This document shows, in pieces, positions 5,260 to 44,067 of a stretch of 64,000 nucleotides of DNA (its first letter is position 1; each line of letters starts with the position of its first letter). The stretch is from NCBI GenBank assembly GCA_964534665.1, contig CAZHRT010000002.1, positions 42,231-106,230 of the forward strand, read 5' to 3'. The notes beneath the pieces were generated by a model, which searched no databases, was not told the origin of the DNA, and worked only from the letters and a program-made list of their open reading frames with translations. This DNA comes from an uncultured Methanosarcinales archaeon. Its GTDB lineage: Archaea > Nanobdellota > Nanobdellia > Woesearchaeales > JAHJBD01. A program made the translations under genes and the position numbers.

Positions 5260-6030
5260 ATGGAAGAGGAAAGTAAACTAATAAGATCTATATGTGTTAT
5301 CAATCAAAAAGGCGGTGTTGGCAAAACTACAACCGCAATTAACCTTGCAGCAGGATTATCAAGAAAAGACAAAAATGTACTACTTGTCGACTTAGACCCT
5401 CAGGGAAATATCGACACAGCACTAAAACTTCAATCAGAATATGATATTTATGATGCAATGACTGGGAGACAGGATATCCTAAGTTGCATTTCAAATGTTG
5501 CTAAAAATTTTGATGTTATTGCTTCTAAAGAAAACTTAGCAAAAATAGAATATTATCTTTCAAGACAAGATGATTCTATTCAATTATTAAAGGATATTTT
5601 TGCCAAATTAAAATCTTATGACTTTATTATTTTTGATTGTCCACCATCATTAGGACTATTAAATCAAAACGCTTTAGCATTTTGTAAAGAAGCTTTTATT
5701 CCAGTATCAACAGATTATTTAGCATTTGACGGCCTCAAAAGAATGGAAGAGTTTATTACACATATTAGGAAGAACTACGAACATGATATTAAGATTACTA
5801 AGATCATTCCTACACTTTTTGATAAACGTAATAAGATTTGTTGTGAAACACTTACAGACATGCAAAATGAATATACTCAACTGTTATCTTACCCTATAAG
5901 AATAAATTCTAAACTAAAAGAAGCACCAAAATATGGGAAATCAATATTTTCTTATGCTAAATCCAGTTCAGGTGCAATAGACTATGGTAAGCTAGTTGAA
6001 GATGTTTTAGTTATGGATATTGCTGCATAA
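5260..6030 (+). CDS. ParA/MinD-family P-loop ATPase
   Basis: deviant Walker A NQKGGVGKTTTAINLAAGL, LVDLDPQGN, ParA/Soj-like length; SD AAGGAGG upstream. Confidence 0.8.
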   Translation: MEEESKLIRSICVINQKGGVGKTTTAINLAAGLSRKDKNVLLVDLDPQGNIDTALKLQSEYDIYDAMTGRQDILSCISNVAKNFDVIASKENLAKIEYYLSRQDDSIQLLKDIFAKLKSYDFIIFDCPPSLGLLNQNALAFCKEAFIPVSTDYLAFDGLKRMEEFITHIRKNYEHDIKITKIIPTLFDKRNKICCETLTDMQNEYTQLLSYPIRINSKLKEAPKYGKSIFSYAKSSSGAIDYGKLVEDVLVMDIAA

Positions 6031-17349: not shown

Positions 17350-17505
17350 ATGTATAATCAATGTGAATCTTGTAAAAAACAAATAAGCGATGCATCAGAT
17401 TGTAGACTATACACCAACGATAATGATGCAATTCATACATTATGTGTAGCTTGTTACGAACAAAGAAAAGCAGTTGAAAAACAAAAACAAGAGTTAGGAC
17501 AATAG
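17350..17505 (+). CDS. small zinc-ribbon protein (51 aa)
   Basis: own translation MYNQCESCKK...LCVACYEQRK; two CxxC pairs; below ORF-track size cutoff. Confidence 0.3.
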   Translation: MYNQCESCKKQISDASDCRLYTNDNDAIHTLCVACYEQRKAVEKQKQELGQ

Positions 17506-19487: not shown

Positions 19488-19613
19488 ATGGATTATTCAA
19501 GCAGTGTACAACAAGATTACAATTCAGGAGCAGATTATTCTAGTTCTAGTAATGAAAAAAGAGGCATGTGCACAGCTAACTGTTCAAATTGTACTGGTTG
19601 CCGTTTTCAATGA
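19488..19613 (+). CDS. small Cys-rich peptide (41 aa), speculative
   Basis: own translation ...KRGMCTANCSNCTGCRFQ; no clear SD; overlaps zwf stop convergently. Confidence 0.2.
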   Translation: MDYSSSVQQDYNSGADYSSSSNEKRGMCTANCSNCTGCRFQ

Positions 19614-24077: not shown

Positions 24078-24745
24078 TGGTTTTTCTTGTTGAATTACTT
24101 TTATCTTTTGGACTAGGTTTTGCAGCAAACCTAAACCCCTGTGTTTTACCTTTATACCCAGGGTTTCTTTCTTATATTGCTAATAAACCAGAAGTTGCAG
24201 AAAAGAAAAATTTTACAAGAACTGCAGGTTTCTATGTTTTAGCAGGCTTAATGATTTTTATGATTCTAATTGGAGTAATAACAGCTTCTTTAGGATTATC
24301 AATTGGCAATTTTGTAAGCACTGTTTCCCCAATAGCTTTTGGCATCTTAGTAATCCTAGGTGTATTATTGTTATTTAACATTGACCTTACAAAATTACTT
24401 CCACAATGGAAAACACCTGTATTAAAAAATCCTTATACCTCAGCATTAATCTTTGGTTTTTTATATGGTCCAATTGTCATTCCTTGTAATGCTCCTTTAG
24501 TTTTTGCAGTATTTGCTTTCTCAGCTAGCGTTACTGGTTTTCTTAACACATTTGCTTTGTTCATGGCATTTGGTTTAGGTCTTGGAATACCTTTAGTAAT
24601 CATAGGTTTCCTTTCAGCTGCAAAAGGCTCTTGGCTTATCAAGAAGTTTGTTAAATATCACACATTGATAAATCGTATTGCAGGCACATTACTTATAATA
24701 TTAGGATTATATGAATTAATTTTTGTATTTAGAATATTTGGGTGA
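24077..24745 (+). CDS. ccdA: CcdA/DsbD-family transmembrane thiol-disulfide electron transporter
   Basis: NLNPCVLPLYPGF (TM1 Cys) and VIPCNAPLVF (TM4 Cys), 6 TM. Confidence 0.65.
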   Translation: MVFLVELLLSFGLGFAANLNPCVLPLYPGFLSYIANKPEVAEKKNFTRTAGFYVLAGLMIFMILIGVITASLGLSIGNFVSTVSPIAFGILVILGVLLLFNIDLTKLLPQWKTPVLKNPYTSALIFGFLYGPIVIPCNAPLVFAVFAFSASVTGFLNTFALFMAFGLGLGIPLVIIGFLSAAKGSWLIKKFVKYHTLINRIAGTLLIILGLYELIFVFRIFG

Positions 24746-25734
24746 AAAAATTGTACAGTACAAAAGATAGATGCTTGGTTGTACAGATGTTGCTCTTAGA
24801 TCAATGTAATCTTAGATGTAAGCACTGCTATGTAGGCGATCAAAAATTTACACCAAGACAGATGCCTACACTTGACACTGTTAAAGATTGGGTTGATAAA
24901 ATAGAGACATTTTCTAAAGAAAACCAGTTTAAATCAACCAGTCTGCATCTATCTGGTGGAGAGCCTTTTGCACGTCTTGATATCTTTGAGATATTAGATT
25001 ATTGTAAATCTAAAAACATCTCAACATTTATTCTTAGCAACGGAACATTGTTTACAAAAGAAACAGCCGACAAATTAATGTCAAGAGGAATTAAAAATAT
25101 TCAGTTCAGTATTGAAGGCCCAGAAGAAATTAATGATAATATTCGTGGAAAAGGAGTTTATCAAAAAGTTATGAATGCAATAAAGATTGCAAAAGAACAA
25201 GGTATGGGTGTAACTGTTAGTATAACACTAAGCAAAAATAATATTTCAATAATTAAAGATTTTATTAAAGAATTAGATCATCTTAATTTAATGTTTCATA
25301 TTAGAGAATTAATGCCTATTGGTGACGGTGCTCATATGAATATAATTACACCTAATCAAAGAAAGGATTTTTTTGAATTTTCTAGAGATTATTCAGGAAA
25401 ATCAATTGTTAAACCAGAAGATCCAATACAATGTAGTATAAAAGATGGAAAAGTTAGAAAAGGTGGTTGTGTTGCAATGAGAAACCATTTTTGCATAGAT
25501 GTTGATGGTTCTATATTTCCATGCGGATTATTACGTGAAAACATAGGAAATATCAATAATTTACAAAAAGTTTATAATTCTGAAATGTCTAGAAAGCTTA
25601 GAAACCGTGAATTAGAAGGAAAATGCGGTGAATGTGACATGTCAGATAGTTGCGGGGGTTGTCGTGCCTATGCTTTTTATGAAAGCAAAAGCATGTTAGC
25701 AGAAGACAACAGATGTTTGCTAGAAACTATGTGA
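24742..25734 (+). CDS. radical SAM enzyme with C-terminal SPASM/twitch Cys cluster
   Basis: CNLRCKHCY CxxxCxxC; C-term CGECDMSDSCGGCRAY; GTG start overlapping upstream stop (GTGA). Confidence 0.75.
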   Translation: MKKLYSTKDRCLVVQMLLLDQCNLRCKHCYVGDQKFTPRQMPTLDTVKDWVDKIETFSKENQFKSTSLHLSGGEPFARLDIFEILDYCKSKNISTFILSNGTLFTKETADKLMSRGIKNIQFSIEGPEEINDNIRGKGVYQKVMNAIKIAKEQGMGVTVSITLSKNNISIIKDFIKELDHLNLMFHIRELMPIGDGAHMNIITPNQRKDFFEFSRDYSGKSIVKPEDPIQCSIKDGKVRKGGCVAMRNHFCIDVDGSIFPCGLLRENIGNINNLQKVYNSEMSRKLRNRELEGKCGECDMSDSCGGCRAYAFYESKSMLAEDNRCLLETM

Positions 25735-25744
25735 GGTGAAATAA

Positions 25745-25804
25745 ATGGGTGATGAAGGTTCCTGCGGTGGCGGTGGAAGTTGCGGCGGAGACAAAAAAGA
25801 ATAG
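25745..25804 (+). CDS. 19-aa Cys/Gly-rich peptide MGDEGSCGGGGSCGGDKKE (candidate precursor peptide)
   Basis: own translation; GAGGTGA SD 5 nt upstream overlapping rSAM stop; followed by T-tract. Confidence 0.4.
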   Translation: MGDEGSCGGGGSCGGDKKE

Positions 25805-25831
25805 GTGAAAAATTTCATCTAAAATTGATTA

Positions 25832-25851
25832 TTATTTTTTATTTTTTTATT
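25832..25851 (+). terminator. T-tract (archaeal-type) terminator after peptide gene
   Basis: TTATTTTTTATTTTTTTATT immediately before next gene SD. Confidence 0.4.
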
Positions 25852-26499: not shown

Positions 26500-27513
26500 A
26501 TGAAAAAAATAATAAGTTTAATTGCATTGTTTTTATTGATTGGATGTTCCCCAGTAGTACAAGATACAACAACTCCAGAAAGTGTTGAAGAATTAGACAT
26601 GTCTCAACCACCTTTTGCAGTATTACCAGCAGAAGCAGGTGAATCACCAAAGATCATGATGACTGATGATGGTATAAAATATATTATTGATCCAGATAAA
26701 ATTCGTGGTGGTGGCCCACCTAAAGATGGCATACCATCAATTGATAATCCTAAATACGTTACTGTTTCTAAGGCAGATGAATGGATCGAAGATAATGAAC
26801 TTGTTCTAGCAATAATTTACAATGGTGTTAAAAGAGTTTATCCATTACAAATATTAGTTTGGCATGAGATTGTTAATGATTTTATTGAAAACGATCCAAT
26901 CTTAATCACATATTGTCCTTTATGCGGTTCTGGAATTGCATATGAAAGAAAAATCAATAATCTGGAAGTTGAATTTGGAACCTCTGGTAAATTATACAAC
27001 TCTAATCTTGTTATGTATGATAGAAAAACAGACACTTACTGGAGCCAGATTGATGGATTAGCAATTGTTGGAGAACTTACAGGCTATCAACTTACAGCAA
27101 TATCAATTGATACAGTTGTTTGGAAAGATTGGAAAGCAGCTCATCCTGATTCAGAAGTTCTTAGCCAAGATACAGGACATTCTAGAAATTATGGCAGGGA
27201 TCCTTATGGTAATTATTATGAAGATAGCTTTCTTTTCTTCCCTGTTGAAGCTGAAGACAACCGTATCCATGCAAAAACAGTAATTTTTGGAATTAACGTT
27301 GACGGTGTTTACAAAGCCTACAAAGAAGAAGATTTATTGACAAGCGATATCATAGACCTTGTTAATGATATTAATCTCATAGTTGAACGAGATGATGTAG
27401 GGATTGTTAAGGTAACTAACACAGATAGTGGAGAAGAAATTGTTAAAGAAAGAGATTTTTGGTTTGCATGGTATGCATTCCATCCAGACACTTTGTTATA
27501 TGAGGTGAAATAA
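26500..27513 (+). CDS. lipoprotein, hypothetical
   Basis: lipobox LLIGCS; 337 aa; CPLCGSG motif; no family recognised. Confidence 0.45.
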   Translation: MKKIISLIALFLLIGCSPVVQDTTTPESVEELDMSQPPFAVLPAEAGESPKIMMTDDGIKYIIDPDKIRGGGPPKDGIPSIDNPKYVTVSKADEWIEDNELVLAIIYNGVKRVYPLQILVWHEIVNDFIENDPILITYCPLCGSGIAYERKINNLEVEFGTSGKLYNSNLVMYDRKTDTYWSQIDGLAIVGELTGYQLTAISIDTVVWKDWKAAHPDSEVLSQDTGHSRNYGRDPYGNYYEDSFLFFPVEAEDNRIHAKTVIFGINVDGVYKAYKEEDLLTSDIIDLVNDINLIVERDDVGIVKVTNTDSGEEIVKERDFWFAWYAFHPDTLLYEVK

Positions 27514-27514
27514 A

Positions 27515-27985
27515 ATAAAATATATATTAATTGTAATAACCATATTATTACTTATTGGATGTACAGCTGAACAAGCAGATGTCCAGCCAGATGTAACAGA
27601 TACAATTGCAGATCTGCCGCCTGTTAATCCAACTCAAGAAGAGCCTAATACAGAAGAACCTATTGAAGAACCAGGACCAGAAAGCCTGCCACCTGAAAAA
27701 GGAGTAGCAGAAGATCTAGAACCAGACGCAGTAACAGAATCCACAGTCAATATTATTACAGTTGAAGAACTAGCATTACACGATAATGAAGAAGATTGCT
27801 GGATTGTTTATGAAGGCAGCATTTTTGATTATACAGGTGCTGGATTTCATCCAGCTATGGCAAAAGTATTTTGGAAATATTGTGGCGATGAAACTGGTTT
27901 TGAAGAAGGTGCAAAAGATAGACATTCAAATAGTGGTGTAGAAAGAGTTGAGAATTATGGTGAATATATAGGTGAACTAGAATGA
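27515..27985 (+). CDS. lipoprotein with cytochrome b5-like heme/steroid-binding domain; no canonical start codon
   Basis: own translation of frame after TGA at 27506: ...ILLLIGCTAEQADV...HDNEEDCWIVYEGSIFDYTGAGFHPA; no ATG/GTG/TTG between upstream stop and lipobox (candidate ATA/ATT start or frameshift). Confidence 0.35.
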   Translation: MKYILIVITILLLIGCTAEQADVQPDVTDTIADLPPVNPTQEEPNTEEPIEEPGPESLPPEKGVAEDLEPDAVTESTVNIITVEELALHDNEEDCWIVYEGSIFDYTGAGFHPAMAKVFWKYCGDETGFEEGAKDRHSNSGVERVENYGEYIGELE

Positions 27986-28125
27986 ACATGAAAGAAAATG
28001 ATGATATTACGGAAGAAAAAGAAGATGCAAAACAAAGATGTAAAGTTTGTGGCAAAGACTCTGGTGAAGACGGCCTTCACAAATGTGGGTGTTGTGGTCA
28101 ATGTTGTGAGTGTGGTGAGAAATGA
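27982..28125 (+). CDS. 47-aa Cys-rich peptide (metallothionein-like), ATGA-coupled on both sides
   Basis: own translation MNMKENDDITEEKEDAKQRCKVCGKDSGEDGLHKCGCCGQCCECGEK; AGGTGA 7 nt upstream. Confidence 0.4.
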   Translation: MNMKENDDITEEKEDAKQRCKVCGKDSGEDGLHKCGCCGQCCECGEK

Positions 28126-42547: not shown

Positions 42548-43114
42548 TTATTGATCATCAAAAGATTTTATACAAGTTTTACATTCCTGTTTACAATTTG
42601 TTTGTTTAGAATTCTCTGGGTCAATGTTTAAAGGCATTATAAAATCCTTTACAGTTGAAATTACAATATTTAATTCAACATCTTTAACTTTAGGGTTTCC
42701 TCTTAGATGATGGTTTACAATTCCCTCTAATTGTTCAAGTCCTGTTGCCATAAAAAATAAACATAGATTATGTTTACCTGAAGTAATTAATGCATTAATA
42801 AAAAAAGGACAATCCTTAAATTCCTCAACTATCGCATTAGTATCCGTTGAAGTAACATCAATTTTTGCTAATGATAAATCAACTGTCTTAAAATTAATAC
42901 CATTTATCGTGTTTATTACACCTTTTTGTTGCAACTTTTTTATCCTTGCACCAACTGAGGGCTGTGAAAGTTTAATTTTTTTAGCAATCTCTTCTTGTGA
43001 TACGTTTGGATTTTTTTGAAGTAGGCTGATTATGATATTGTCTCTATTATCTAAATCTAACTTAGATTCAATACCACAACTATGTTCTTCAATTTTATTA
43101 AAATTCTTAGTCAT
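42548..43114 (-). CDS. HTH (Lrp/AsnC-like) transcriptional regulator with Cys-rich C-terminus
   Basis: N-terminal IISLLQKNPNVSQEEIAKKIKLSQPSVGARIKKLQQKGVI; C-term CKQECKTC. Confidence 0.45.
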   Translation of the reverse strand: MTKNFNKIEEHSCGIESKLDLDNRDNIIISLLQKNPNVSQEEIAKKIKLSQPSVGARIKKLQQKGVINTINGINFKTVDLSLAKIDVTSTDTNAIVEEFKDCPFFINALITSGKHNLCLFFMATGLEQLEGIVNHHLRGNPKVKDVELNIVISTVKDFIMPLNIDPENSKQTNCKQECKTCIKSFDDQ

Positions 43115-43256
43115 TTTCCTCTCAACTAGAGGATAATAACCCCTAATATTTAAATATTTCCTTTTTATTATAATCTTAATAAAGTAAAAACTTATATTCT
43201 ATAGTAATACTATTTATATATCTCTGCGTTACTTAATACTATAATGAGAAAAATTG

Positions 43257-43292
43257 TCCTGCAACTAACACCTTTTAATTGCAGGACGATAA
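43257..43292. promoter_or_regulatory. 9-bp GC-rich perfect hairpin GTCCTGCAA-N14-TTGCAGGAC in divergent intergenic region
   Basis: read directly; the only GC-rich element in an AT-rich spacer. Confidence 0.4.
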
Positions 43293-43311
43293 CATCTCAT
43301 AGGTGGTTAAA

Positions 43312-43425
43312 ATGGAATACAAATGTGATTGCGGAAATGTCTGTAATGTTGAAAAACAAACAGAAGGATTTGGTGATGATAGTATAACCATTAAGTGTAC
43401 TTGTTGTGGTGCAGAATTACAATAG
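43312..43425 (+). CDS. 37-aa Cys-rich peptide MEYKCDCGNVCN...KCTCCGAELQ
   Basis: own translation; AGGTGG SD 5 nt upstream. Confidence 0.35.
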   Translation: MEYKCDCGNVCNVEKQTEGFGDDSITIKCTCCGAELQ

Positions 43426-43487
43426 CAAAGCTATAGGTTTAGGCCCCTTTTCCTTAGCTGCTAAAAAATAGAGTGAGGTGATTACAA

Positions 43488-43511
43488 ATGTGTGGAGATG
43501 GATGTTGTTAA
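43488..43511 (+). CDS. 7-aa micro-ORF MCGDGCC with perfect SD and T-tract terminator
   Basis: GAGGTGA 6 nt upstream of ATG; followed by TTTTTTTATTTTTTTATTTTTT (43531-43551). Confidence 0.3.
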   Translation: MCGDGCC

Positions 43512-43566
43512 AAAATAAGTAAAAACAGATTTTTTTATTTTTTTATTTTTTATCATTCTACATGAG

Positions 43567-44067
43567 GTGATTAAAACATCAATTAACGATATTATTCAGG
43601 AATTAAGACAAGGTAAGATTGATCAGATTGAATTATATTTAGATTATAATGGTCAAGTTAACAAGATTATGATAAATAATGCAATGAAAAAACAAAAAGA
43701 AGTCAGGAAGGTAAGTCTAAAAGGAAATAAATTGCCAAATGTAAATTTTAGTCAAACAAGAATAAAAGGAAATTTCTCAGGACTTACCCTTTCTGGCTCA
43801 AACTTTTCATATTCAACAATTGAGACAGCAGACTTTTCAAGCACTAATCTGTATGGTGCTGATTTTAATAAAGCAAAAATCTCACAAACAAACATGTCAT
43901 CAGCATATAACGCAAATTTGGGAAATGCATATATGACTGGATCAGTTAATTTATATAATGTTAATCCAGAAAATACACATTCATATAATCCAAGAACAAC
44001 AGAAGTAAAAATGCTTGATGATACACAAGATATAAATAGGGTAATCCTATCAAAGAGAAATTATTAA
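43567..44067 (+). CDS. pentapeptide-repeat protein
   Basis: tandem A(D/N)LxG-like pentapeptides NFSQTRIKGNFSGLTLSGSNFSYSTIETADFSSTNLYGADFNKAKI; start uncertain (track GTG lies inside SD; in-frame ATG at 43669). Confidence 0.6.
   Translation: MIKTSINDIIQELRQGKIDQIELYLDYNGQVNKIMINNAMKKQKEVRKVSLKGNKLPNVNFSQTRIKGNFSGLTLSGSNFSYSTIETADFSSTNLYGADFNKAKISQTNMSSAYNANLGNAYMTGSVNLYNVNPENTHSYNPRTTEVKMLDDTQDINRVILSKRNY

Follow-up and report, generated by a model that had tools for sequence, protein, structure and literature searches.

A conserved seven-codon, cysteine-ending reading frame upstream of antioxidant genes in DPANN archaea

Can an open reading frame (ORF) of only seven codons be a conserved genetic element and, if so, of what kind? 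The question is raised by a 452-bp spacer between an Lrp/AsnC-type regulator gene and a pentapeptide-repeat gene in contig CAZHRT010000002.1, of which a stretch of 64,000 nucleotides, here called the window, was analysed. The window has a G+C content of ~30% and carries archaeal marker genes (class-I CCA-adding enzyme, Ski2/DSHCT helicase and SepF). Its host is a DPANN archaeon (Woesearchaeota-like), and several marine metagenomes hold contigs identical to it. All of the features of the locus lie in this spacer, for which a preliminary description had listed a GC-rich hairpin, a 37-aa ORF behind AGGTGG, a seven-codon ORF MCGDGCC behind GAGGTGA, and a T-tract; each is present after small corrections to the coordinates, and the flanking genes are, by Pfam, those that had been named. 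The seven-codon ORF, hereafter the micro-ORF, is a real element in about 20 related tiny archaea, where it lies next to antioxidant genes. From its sequence and setting it is most likely a translated thiol or cysteine sensor, or else a tiny dithiol peptide.

Conservation of the seven-codon reading frame

The micro-ORF (43488–43511, + strand) reads ATG TGT GGA GAT GGA TGT TGT TAA, and its ATG follows a perfect GAGGTGA (43475–43481, + strand) after a spacer of 6 nt. This motif occurs six times on the + strand of the window and not at all on the - strand, with 1.5 copies expected per strand. All six copies closely precede an ORF, four of them with an ATG at the usual spacing of 4–7 nt, and GAGGTGA is the Shine-Dalgarno (SD) consensus of this genome. 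The copies at 27502 and 43564 have no canonical start at SD spacing. The latter (43564–43570, + strand) overlaps the start of the pentapeptide-repeat gene (43567–44067, + strand, identified by Pfam), whose GTG at 43567 lies inside the motif, so that the motif cannot be the SD of this gene; the N-terminus of the protein agrees with that of the orthologue in locus L036. At the other copy, GAGGTGA is followed after 6 nt by ATA, which appears to be a non-canonical initiation codon of a cytochrome-b5-like lipoprotein ORF (27502–27984) with the signal peptide KYILIVITILLLIGC.

For comparison, 45 loci with orthologues of the regulator gene were retrieved and the side divergent from that gene was inspected. 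The 370 kb searched contain 127 SD-led ORFs of 4–13 codons, nine of which end in Cys-Cys, where ~0.16 would be expected (P ~1e-13). All nine are of one type and occupy one position, divergent from the regulator: MCGDGCC (in the window and in L011), MGGDGCC, MIGDGCC, MNGPGCC, MGGGGCC (twice), MEGGKCC, and MCGGGKCC. The form M-x-G-x-G-C-C-stop is present in the window and in six other species-level genomes, with the MEGGKCC and MCGGGKCC forms in two more. A pattern scan of metagenomes added 11 loci, ten of them distinct, at a chance rate below one match per 1e12 nt; the pattern had zero matches in a collection of viral contigs. Conservation of the micro-ORF and its SD in relatives, to which the preliminary description had looked for support, is therefore present in seven species-level genomes and ten distinct metagenome contigs. 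Shorter and longer variants are MCGGC, MGCGCG, MGPGCGNC, and MHCGDDYGSC.

The way in which the copies differ is that of a coding sequence. Two adjacent Cys codons are found in all 16 seven-codon copies, and the variants have from two to five Cys codons. Codons 3, 6, and 7 show synonymous variation only (GGA/GGC/GGT and TGT/TGC), while codon 5 is GGA in 14 of the 16. At codon 4, Asp, Gly, Pro, or Lys are encoded by unrelated triplets, with synonymous pairs there as well, and codon 2 is free. The ATG and the TAA are invariant, and changes in length are by whole codons, giving ORFs of 5, 6, 7, 8, and 10 codons. These synonymous changes and whole-codon insertions and deletions point to translation of the micro-ORF.

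Same-strand genes are found 80–300 nt downstream of the micro-ORF in about 17 of 19 loci. They encode peroxiredoxin (Prx), glutaredoxin–thioredoxin reductase (Grx-TrxR), nitroreductase, pentapeptide-repeat, Fe-S, and rhodanese proteins, and clusters of the ArsR/YHS/thioredoxin (Trx) type. Several of the metagenome loci adjoin genes for desulfoferrodoxin (SOR), Grx, TrxR, nitroreductase, or rubrerythrin. In the window, Pfam and the gene tables place nitroreductase, peroxiredoxin, glutaredoxin-like, thioredoxin reductase, ferritin-like, and desulfoferrodoxin genes in the row opened by the pentapeptide-repeat gene. In L036, no other ORF lies between the regulated promoter and the micro-ORF. In L052 and L058, a ~75-aa membrane protein (...GMMG...WF.LAAF.FS.IFWSTYKW...) precedes it, with the TGA stop inside the GGAGGTGA of the micro-ORF; the same protein is encoded in the regulator-linked unit of L015 and L043. 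A precursor of a ribosomally synthesized and post-translationally modified peptide (RiPP), such as a sactipeptide or ranthipeptide, does not fit the micro-ORF, which is too short for leader plus core and has no maturase gene adjacent in any of its loci.

A possible leader sensor, dithiol peptide, or translated spacer

Our favoured reading, which is tentative and has somewhat less than an even chance, is that the micro-ORF is a cis-acting leader-type sensor for the antioxidant genes, working through its Cys codons. Ribosomes would load on the perfect SD, and their progress through the tandem Cys codons would depend on charged tRNA-Cys and thus on the supply of reduced cysteine or thiol. The position of the ribosome would then set the share of transcripts that pass a U-tract terminator, or else the access to the next start, so that expression of the antioxidant genes would be coupled to thiol status. 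The sequences themselves show the micro-ORF, its conservation, its coding-type substitutions and genomic setting, and the conserved hairpin; translation, the sensing of Cys, and its link to termination are what we infer from them. A Cys-dependent leader role had been suggested in the preliminary description and is still the leading explanation.

This reading is favoured because the distribution of the micro-ORF is like that of a riboswitch, a same-strand element before diverse yet functionally related genes; because several Cys-rich micro-ORFs per locus or genome precede distinct redox operons; because the succession of micro-ORF, T-tract, and SD in the window leaves no room for a promoter; because the micro-ORF is the first cistron in L036; and because there is a precedent in the polycysteine leaders of mycobacteria (bioRxiv 10.1101/834739).

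The T-tract (43530–43551, + strand; T7-A-T7-A-T6) is one of only three in the 64 kb with at least 17 T in 20 nt, two of which are on the + strand. Both of the + strand tracts follow SD-led Gly/Cys micro-ORFs and end 3–12 nt before the GAGGTGA of the next gene, which does not leave room for a promoter and a 5' untranslated region. In most relatives, too, a T-tract follows the micro-ORF. U-tract termination in archaea does not need a hairpin, and the tract at 43530–43551 is a candidate archaeal terminator or attenuator. It could alternatively be a TATA-like element for a leaderless pentapeptide-repeat mRNA, in which case terminator and promoter would overlap; the centre of the tract lies about 26 nt upstream of the GTG start. 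The U-tract and aCPSF1 have been linked to the efficacy of archaeal termination (PMC8716108).

The other + strand tract belongs to a second device of the same layout (25733–25848, + strand), consisting of GAGGTGA, a 19-codon ORF MGDEGSCGGGGSCGGDKKE (25745–25804), a T-tract (25829–25848), and lastly the GAGGTGA in front of a gene for molybdopterin oxidoreductase. The 19-codon ORF comes directly after a radical SAM/SPASM gene (24742–25734) and is followed by TTATTATTTTTTATTTTTTT; one possibility for it is a second device of the leader type, another a RiPP-like precursor. Other products of the operon are an FTR-like protein, a Trx-like protein, and CcdA/DsbD. Further Cys-rich micro-ORFs upstream of redox genes occur in the lineage, in partial support of the preliminary description. 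In L026 (about 200–247, - strand), 13 nt separate the end of the polycysteine micro-ORF MCCCCGCRDKKKEDK (MCCCCGC...) from the SD of a desulfoferrodoxin (SOR) gene, and in L017 (about 5797–5844, - strand), MGCCGCGSKDKKKKK lies before a rubrerythrin–Prx pair. Both have Lys-rich tails, and with the related 19-codon ORF of the window they make up a second class of Cys-rich micro-ORF. L017 carries both MEGGKCC and MGCCGCGSKDKKKKK, just as the window carries both the 7-aa and the 19-aa ORF.

The closest known systems are the short mycobacterial ORFs with two or more consecutive Cys codons, which are Cys-responsive attenuators (Canestrari et al., bioRxiv 10.1101/834739). Like the micro-ORF, they are unannotated and very short, have consecutive Cys codons at the 3' end, lie upstream of operons on the same strand, and are present in several copies per genome (a "ribulon"), a pair of adjacent Cys codons being enough in that system. 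They are leaderless, whereas the micro-ORF is SD-led, and they belong to bacteria, not to DPANN archaea with U-tract terminators. Their targets are genes of cysteine and sulfur metabolism rather than antioxidant and thiol-redox genes, and Gly is conserved here in addition. In the mycobacterial mechanism, the UGY tract base-pairs with the SD downstream of it; pairing of this type was considered for the micro-ORF and rejected, since it is not conserved. The micro-ORF is thus most like the mycobacterial attenuators but is not a member of their family, as the structural switch and the Cys-metabolism targets are missing.

A comparison with leader attenuators in general gives a similar picture. The micro-ORF is a short same-strand ORF with a start signal and has tandem Cys codons, but mutually exclusive RNA structures, and downstream genes that make or import the sensed amino acid, were not found with it. 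In the trpL, hisL, and pheL attenuators and the drug-sensing leaders of cat, cmlA, and erm, a tiny ORF carries tandem regulatory codons or encodes a specific nascent peptide. These ORFs, too, lie just before a terminator and structural genes; no pair of terminator and antiterminator hairpins is evident here, where the candidate terminator is an archaeal oligo-U tract. Literature searches found neither a leader-peptide or upstream-ORF sensor described in archaea nor a conserved ORF of 5–8 codons described in DPANN archaea.

Several observations weigh against a Cys-codon leader. G3, G5, and the turn formers D/G/P/K at codon 4 are kept at the amino-acid level, and a pure tRNA-Cys sensor needs none of them. 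There is no conserved alternative RNA structure in which the micro-ORF pairs with the downstream SD, and when the micro-ORF is masked, that SD becomes free in two loci only, the window (0.12 to 0.48) and L011. The fold of 43480–43566 is no better than that of shuffled sequences (z -1.4). That U-tract termination in archaea is hairpin-independent also counts against the idea of a ribosome modulating it. Coupling to the upstream membrane-protein gene in L052 and L058, together with a T-tract and then a TATA-like sequence with room for a separate promoter, gives the micro-ORF the look of a terminal cistron there. Downstream lie antioxidant genes rather than genes of cysteine biosynthesis. Finally, the contigs of the species are all 100% identical, as five with the 37-aa ORF are to the window, and so give no information on population variation.

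The micro-ORF may instead be a true gene whose product, a Gly-rich heptapeptide with a C-terminal vicinal dithiol, acts in trans, a possibility that we regard as rather unlikely but substantial. The peptide might serve Prx, Grx, and TrxR as a redox shuttle or as a thiol of low molecular weight made on the ribosome; it might also bind soft metals or be an effector of the Lrp-type regulator. The amino-acid-level conservation of G3, G5, C6, and C7 and of the turn formers at position 4 would agree with this, as would the retention of a dithiol in variants with other spacings (CC, CGC, CGGC, CGNC) and the strongest possible SD (GGAGGTGA) in every copy. The arrangement in L052 and L058, where the micro-ORF is translationally coupled to the upstream gene and is the terminal cistron before a T-tract with an apparent new promoter after it, fits a gene of its own, and the micro-ORF is always among thiol-redox or metal genes. 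In a cell of ~0.02 fL, a concentration of 1 mM would be reached with only about 1e4 molecules. Set against this, we know of no directly translated functional prokaryotic peptide of 5–8 residues, and peptides so short would be expected to be degraded rapidly. No constant partner gene adjoins the micro-ORF, the downstream genes varying as they do with cis-regulatory elements, and the Cys-rich micro-ORFs are highly diverse in sequence outside their Cys codons. Cis-acting leader and trans-acting peptide are not exclusive, since a leader peptide, too, may work in trans (peTrpL, PMC7298713).

A more specific form of the trans-acting peptide is doubtful: that the DPANN heptapeptide (M)xG[D/G/P]GCC is a ribosomally made dithiol cofactor that replaces glutathione-type thiols for the neighbouring Prx, Grx, and TrxR, or else the redox effector of the Lrp-type regulator. 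Gly-flanked Cys pairs recall the redox tails of high-Mr thioredoxin reductases and of MerA, in which Cys-Cys, Cys-Sec, or C-x4-C is flanked by Gly or Ser; for the trans-acting peptide in general, this serves as a lead only. Like the micro-ORF peptide, these tails are flexible Gly-rich endings with a vicinal or close dithiol, and TrxR and a glutaredoxin-like protein are encoded nearby. The tails are part of a ~55-kDa enzyme, however, and not free 5–8-mers, and the TrxR encoded here is of the low-Mr type, which needs no tail. There is a resemblance and nothing further.

It is improbable that the micro-ORF is simply a translated spacer or terminal cistron, for which the peptide and Cys sensing would be irrelevant. 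In that case, it would keep a ribosome near the RNA polymerase or the mRNA 3' end, set U-tract termination or protect the transcript, and hand ribosomes on. Its position between a terminator-like hairpin and a U-tract would suit this role, and in relatives that have the hairpin but not the micro-ORF, the hairpin, a T-run, and the next SD come in direct succession. Operon-internal terminators that tune stoichiometry are reported to be common in an archaeon (PMC10450193). What a spacer leaves unexplained is the conserved G-x-G-C-C, the near-constant length, and the recurrence of Cys in independent classes of micro-ORF. The archaeal U-tract and operon-internal terminators (PMC8716108, PMC10450193) resemble the window in having a T-tract after a stop codon in a row of co-oriented genes; in the abstracts of these papers, they are constitutive and graded, and no translated Cys-rich micro-ORF directly upstream is described.

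The two hairpins and the 37-residue reading frame

The preliminary description had overlooked a second, conserved hairpin (hairpin 2; 43429–43459, + strand), which lies between the stop of the 37-aa ORF and the SD of the micro-ORF and has the stem AGCUAUAGG/CCUUAGCU and the loop UUUAGGCCCCUUUU. A covariance model, R1, gives it 21.8 bits, compared with 24–40 bits in 17 relatives and 15.1 bits in L030. The model finds 20 copies of the hairpin, all in this type of locus and none elsewhere in the 370 kb, and the hairpin as a genome-wide terminator or repeat is rejected on that ground. Double-sided changes are present at all ten pairs of the stem, with a covariation score reached by none of 500 shuffles; the MAFFT alignment is off by one register in places, so that these counts understate the pairing. 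The z-scores of the relatives are from -2.0 to -6.6 and that of the copy in the window is -0.9; the latter is a degenerate member of the family.

The loop of this family, 5'-UU..(A/G)CC(U/C)CUUU-3', is conserved while the sequence of the stem differs between genomes. It is similar to the anti-SD in the 3' tail of 16S rRNA, and a conserved loop is atypical for terminators. Many of the copies have flanking A- and T-runs like those of bidirectional terminators, which the copy in the window is without. Where a relative has the hairpin and no micro-ORF, a T-run comes immediately after the stem-loop, and then the next SD. A search of the 64 kb with Rfam 15 gave no match at the gathering threshold, and 43100–43620 gave only noise (E >= 0.7).

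These properties raise the question of whether the conserved sequence is an RNA element in which the purine/G-rich GGAGGUGA...GGNGGN pairs with the hairpin loop in a pseudoknot or riboswitch-like structure, the ORF being incidental. The loop CC(U/C)CUUU is indeed the complement of GGAGG/AGAGG and remains conserved above a covarying stem, and the hairpin is more widespread than the micro-ORF. Covariation between loop and SD is powerless as a test here, since all of the SDs are near-identical. An RNA element would not account for the three-nucleotide periodicity, the invariant ATG and TAA, and the in-frame insertions and deletions, and codons 2 and 4 need not be G-rich (CCT, GAT, AAA). There are also micro-ORFs without the hairpin in L021, L033, L036, and L052–L061, and no Rfam family matches. 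We consider this explanation very improbable.

Hairpin 1 (43254–43289, + strand, from folding) is the one that had been described before. Its perfect 9-bp arms, GTCCTGCAA (43256–43264) and TTGCAGGAC (43279–43287), are part of an extended stem of 11–12 bp with the loop CUAACACCUUUUAA. It folds with -17.9 kcal/mol (z = -7.8 to -8.1; none of 200 shuffles equal). The start of transcription is predicted near 43244 (+ strand) from the usual archaeal distance between TATA box and start, which would place hairpin 1 near the 5' end of the transcript, at about +10 to +46 and 11 nt 5' of the SD of the 37-aa ORF. Its loop (ACACCUUUU) is akin to the conserved loop of the hairpin family, but the rest is specific to the window, and it scores just 18.5 bits with R1 although it was included in the training of that model. 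As a repeated operator it was rejected, because there is no further GTCCTGCAA half-site in the window. As a hairpin-plus-U-run terminator, it has no T-run on the + strand, and a match is present on the - strand only, where there is no gene to terminate.

The 37-aa ORF, p37 (43312–43425, + strand), starts with ATG at 43312, 5 nt after its SD AGGTGG (43301–43306, + strand), and ends with TAG at 43423–43425. Its product, MEYKCDCGNVCNVEKQTEGFGDDSITIKCTCCGAELQ, has six cysteines (C5, C7, C11, C29, C31, and C32) in the arrangement C-x-C-x3-C ... C-x-C-C. The codon-usage log-likelihood of p37 is +0.39 bit/codon, compared with 0.50 +/- 0.11 for the genes of the window. The overlapping 47-aa frame (-0.18) and antisense frame (-0.32 bit/codon) have non-coding-like codon usage, on which ground an antisense ORF over p37 was rejected. 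It is hardly credible that the 47-aa frame, as a leaderless ORF (43244–43387), is the true gene in place of p37, or that the small ORFs are the product of chance in an AT-rich spacer. The ATG at 43244 is 24 nt past the TATA box, where L012 and L024 start leaderless, but translation from it would run through the very stable hairpin 1, and the gene callers picked p37. The conservation of the micro-ORF is not explicable by chance.

p37 is already annotated as "hypothetical protein" on 21 contigs, every one identical to the window. No relative of p37 was found in a word search of 5.8e9 clusters or in a HMMER scan of 1.84e9 representative proteins. There is no Pfam match, and the best match in the PDB, the zinc-ribbon protein S27e, has E = 1, which is at chance level. 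An AlphaFold2 model made from the single sequence (predicted local distance difference test score, pLDDT, 74) has one beta-hairpin and no match in Foldseek. We think it rather likely that p37 is a real, lineage-specific small protein, probably one that binds metal. Zinc-ribbon and rubredoxin-like small proteins have two CxxC(G)-type knuckles on beta-hairpins, with one metal bound. p37 is like the archaeal zinc-finger and zinc-ribbon micro-proteins and the rubredoxin-like knuckles in its ~40 residues, its position in a redox cluster, its two Cys clusters ~20 residues apart, and its predicted beta-hairpin, but its Cys spacing, C-x-C-x3-C ... C-x-C-C, is not that of two CxxC(G) knuckles.

In relatives, the place of p37 is taken by a DUF1858 protein and a conserved 45-aa C-x-KGKC protein. 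That p37 could be a diverged member of the latter was rejected, as hhalign of the alignment of that family (A4) against p37 gave a probability of 0.2%. The C-x-KGKC family comprises proteins of 43–54 aa of the form M-x-Q-x-I-x-C-x-K-G-K-C...N-I-V-x-Q-I-x-x-D-L; it has no Pfam family and is represented by only 24 clusters in the 5.8e9. It is present in L008, L010, L012, L014, L016, L017, L023, L025, L027, L031–L034, L039, and L062–L064, and, where examined (e.g. L010, L063, L064), the gene lies between the DUF1858 gene and the conserved hairpin.

The divergent regulator, other small frames, and meaning of the locus

The regulator gene (42548–43114, - strand; Pfam HTH_24 / HTH_AsnC-type / AsnC_trans_reg) encodes a winged helix-turn-helix protein and is divergent from the unit studied here. 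There are 335 homologues at E <= 1e-10, and the best 120 of the 335 have 63–78% identity. The orthologues are from metagenome-assembled genomes named Woesearchaeota, Pacearchaeota, or Nanoarchaeota; more distant relatives (40–48% identity) are held by ANME-1/Methanophagales. In an alignment of 24 sequences, C101 (in DCPFF), C173, and C177 are invariant, and usually also C180, in a C-x-Q-x-C-x-x-C tail. In about half of the loci whose flanks are long enough, the regulator faces genes for Prx, Grx, TrxR, ferritin-like protein, SOR, or rubrerythrin. A redox sensor of Fe-S or thiol type is a candidate role for it.

In an alignment of the regulator-facing promoter from 17 loci, the TATA box TTTATATA (43213–43220, + strand) is kept, together with an operator-like block TTATAT..TA.AG...TTA (about 43191–43212, + strand). 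In L012 and L024, there is a leaderless ATG as far from the TATA box as the predicted start is in the window. The interval is best explained as the 5' part of a redox-stress transcription unit, with a promoter that faces the Cys-bearing Lrp/AsnC-type regulator.

The other small Cys ORFs to which the preliminary description had drawn attention exist (17350–17505, 19488–19613, the 19-aa ORF at 25745–25804, and a 47-aa ORF at 27982–28125). They are not the one homologous family that had been supposed, being unrelated, with p37 having no detectable relative and no match to the C-x-KGKC family. Nor are they all invisible to standard annotation; this is true of the 7- and 19-codon ORFs only, which are below the limits of gene callers, whereas the 37-, 41-, 47-, 51-, and 83-aa ORFs are in public collections, four of them named "hypothetical protein" and the 41-aa one unnamed. 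The 47-aa ORF at 27982–28125, annotated as a hypothetical protein, has eight Cys (...CKVCGK...HKCGCCGQCCECGEK). At both ends there is an ATGA overlap, with the stop of the upstream cytochrome-b5-like gene on one side and the start of a transaldolase gene on the other, and from these overlaps the ORF would be tightly coupled in translation to either neighbour. Small CxxC...CxxC proteins with a helix-like C-terminal tail (...EQRKAVEKQKQEL / ...QEKQAQRQELL) recur at or near the place of the micro-ORF in relatives, with examples in L036 (a 37-aa protein after the micro-ORF), L023 (a 51-aa protein after the hairpin), and L019; another is encoded elsewhere in the window, at 17350–17505. These may be a small zinc-finger family.

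The locus provides a concrete archaeal candidate for study, in which a perfect SD, M-x-G-x-G-C-C-stop, and a U-tract lie ahead of antioxidant genes, and with which reporters could probe whether archaeal termination of the U-tract or FttA type responds to translation. It also yields a candidate redox-sensing Lrp-type regulator and, as further new items with no Pfam or Rfam match, the hairpin motif, with its covarying stem and anti-SD-like loop, and the 45-aa family. More generally, the length limits of gene callers hide conserved elements of 5–8 codons. Should the product be the peptide itself, gene-encoded thiols would gain a new class, and if the dithiol cofactor or effector should prove true, no conserved protein-coding gene known in prokaryotes whose product acts in trans would be smaller than the micro-ORF. 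The locus bears on the way in which oxidative and thiol stress may be sensed by genome-reduced anaerobic symbionts.

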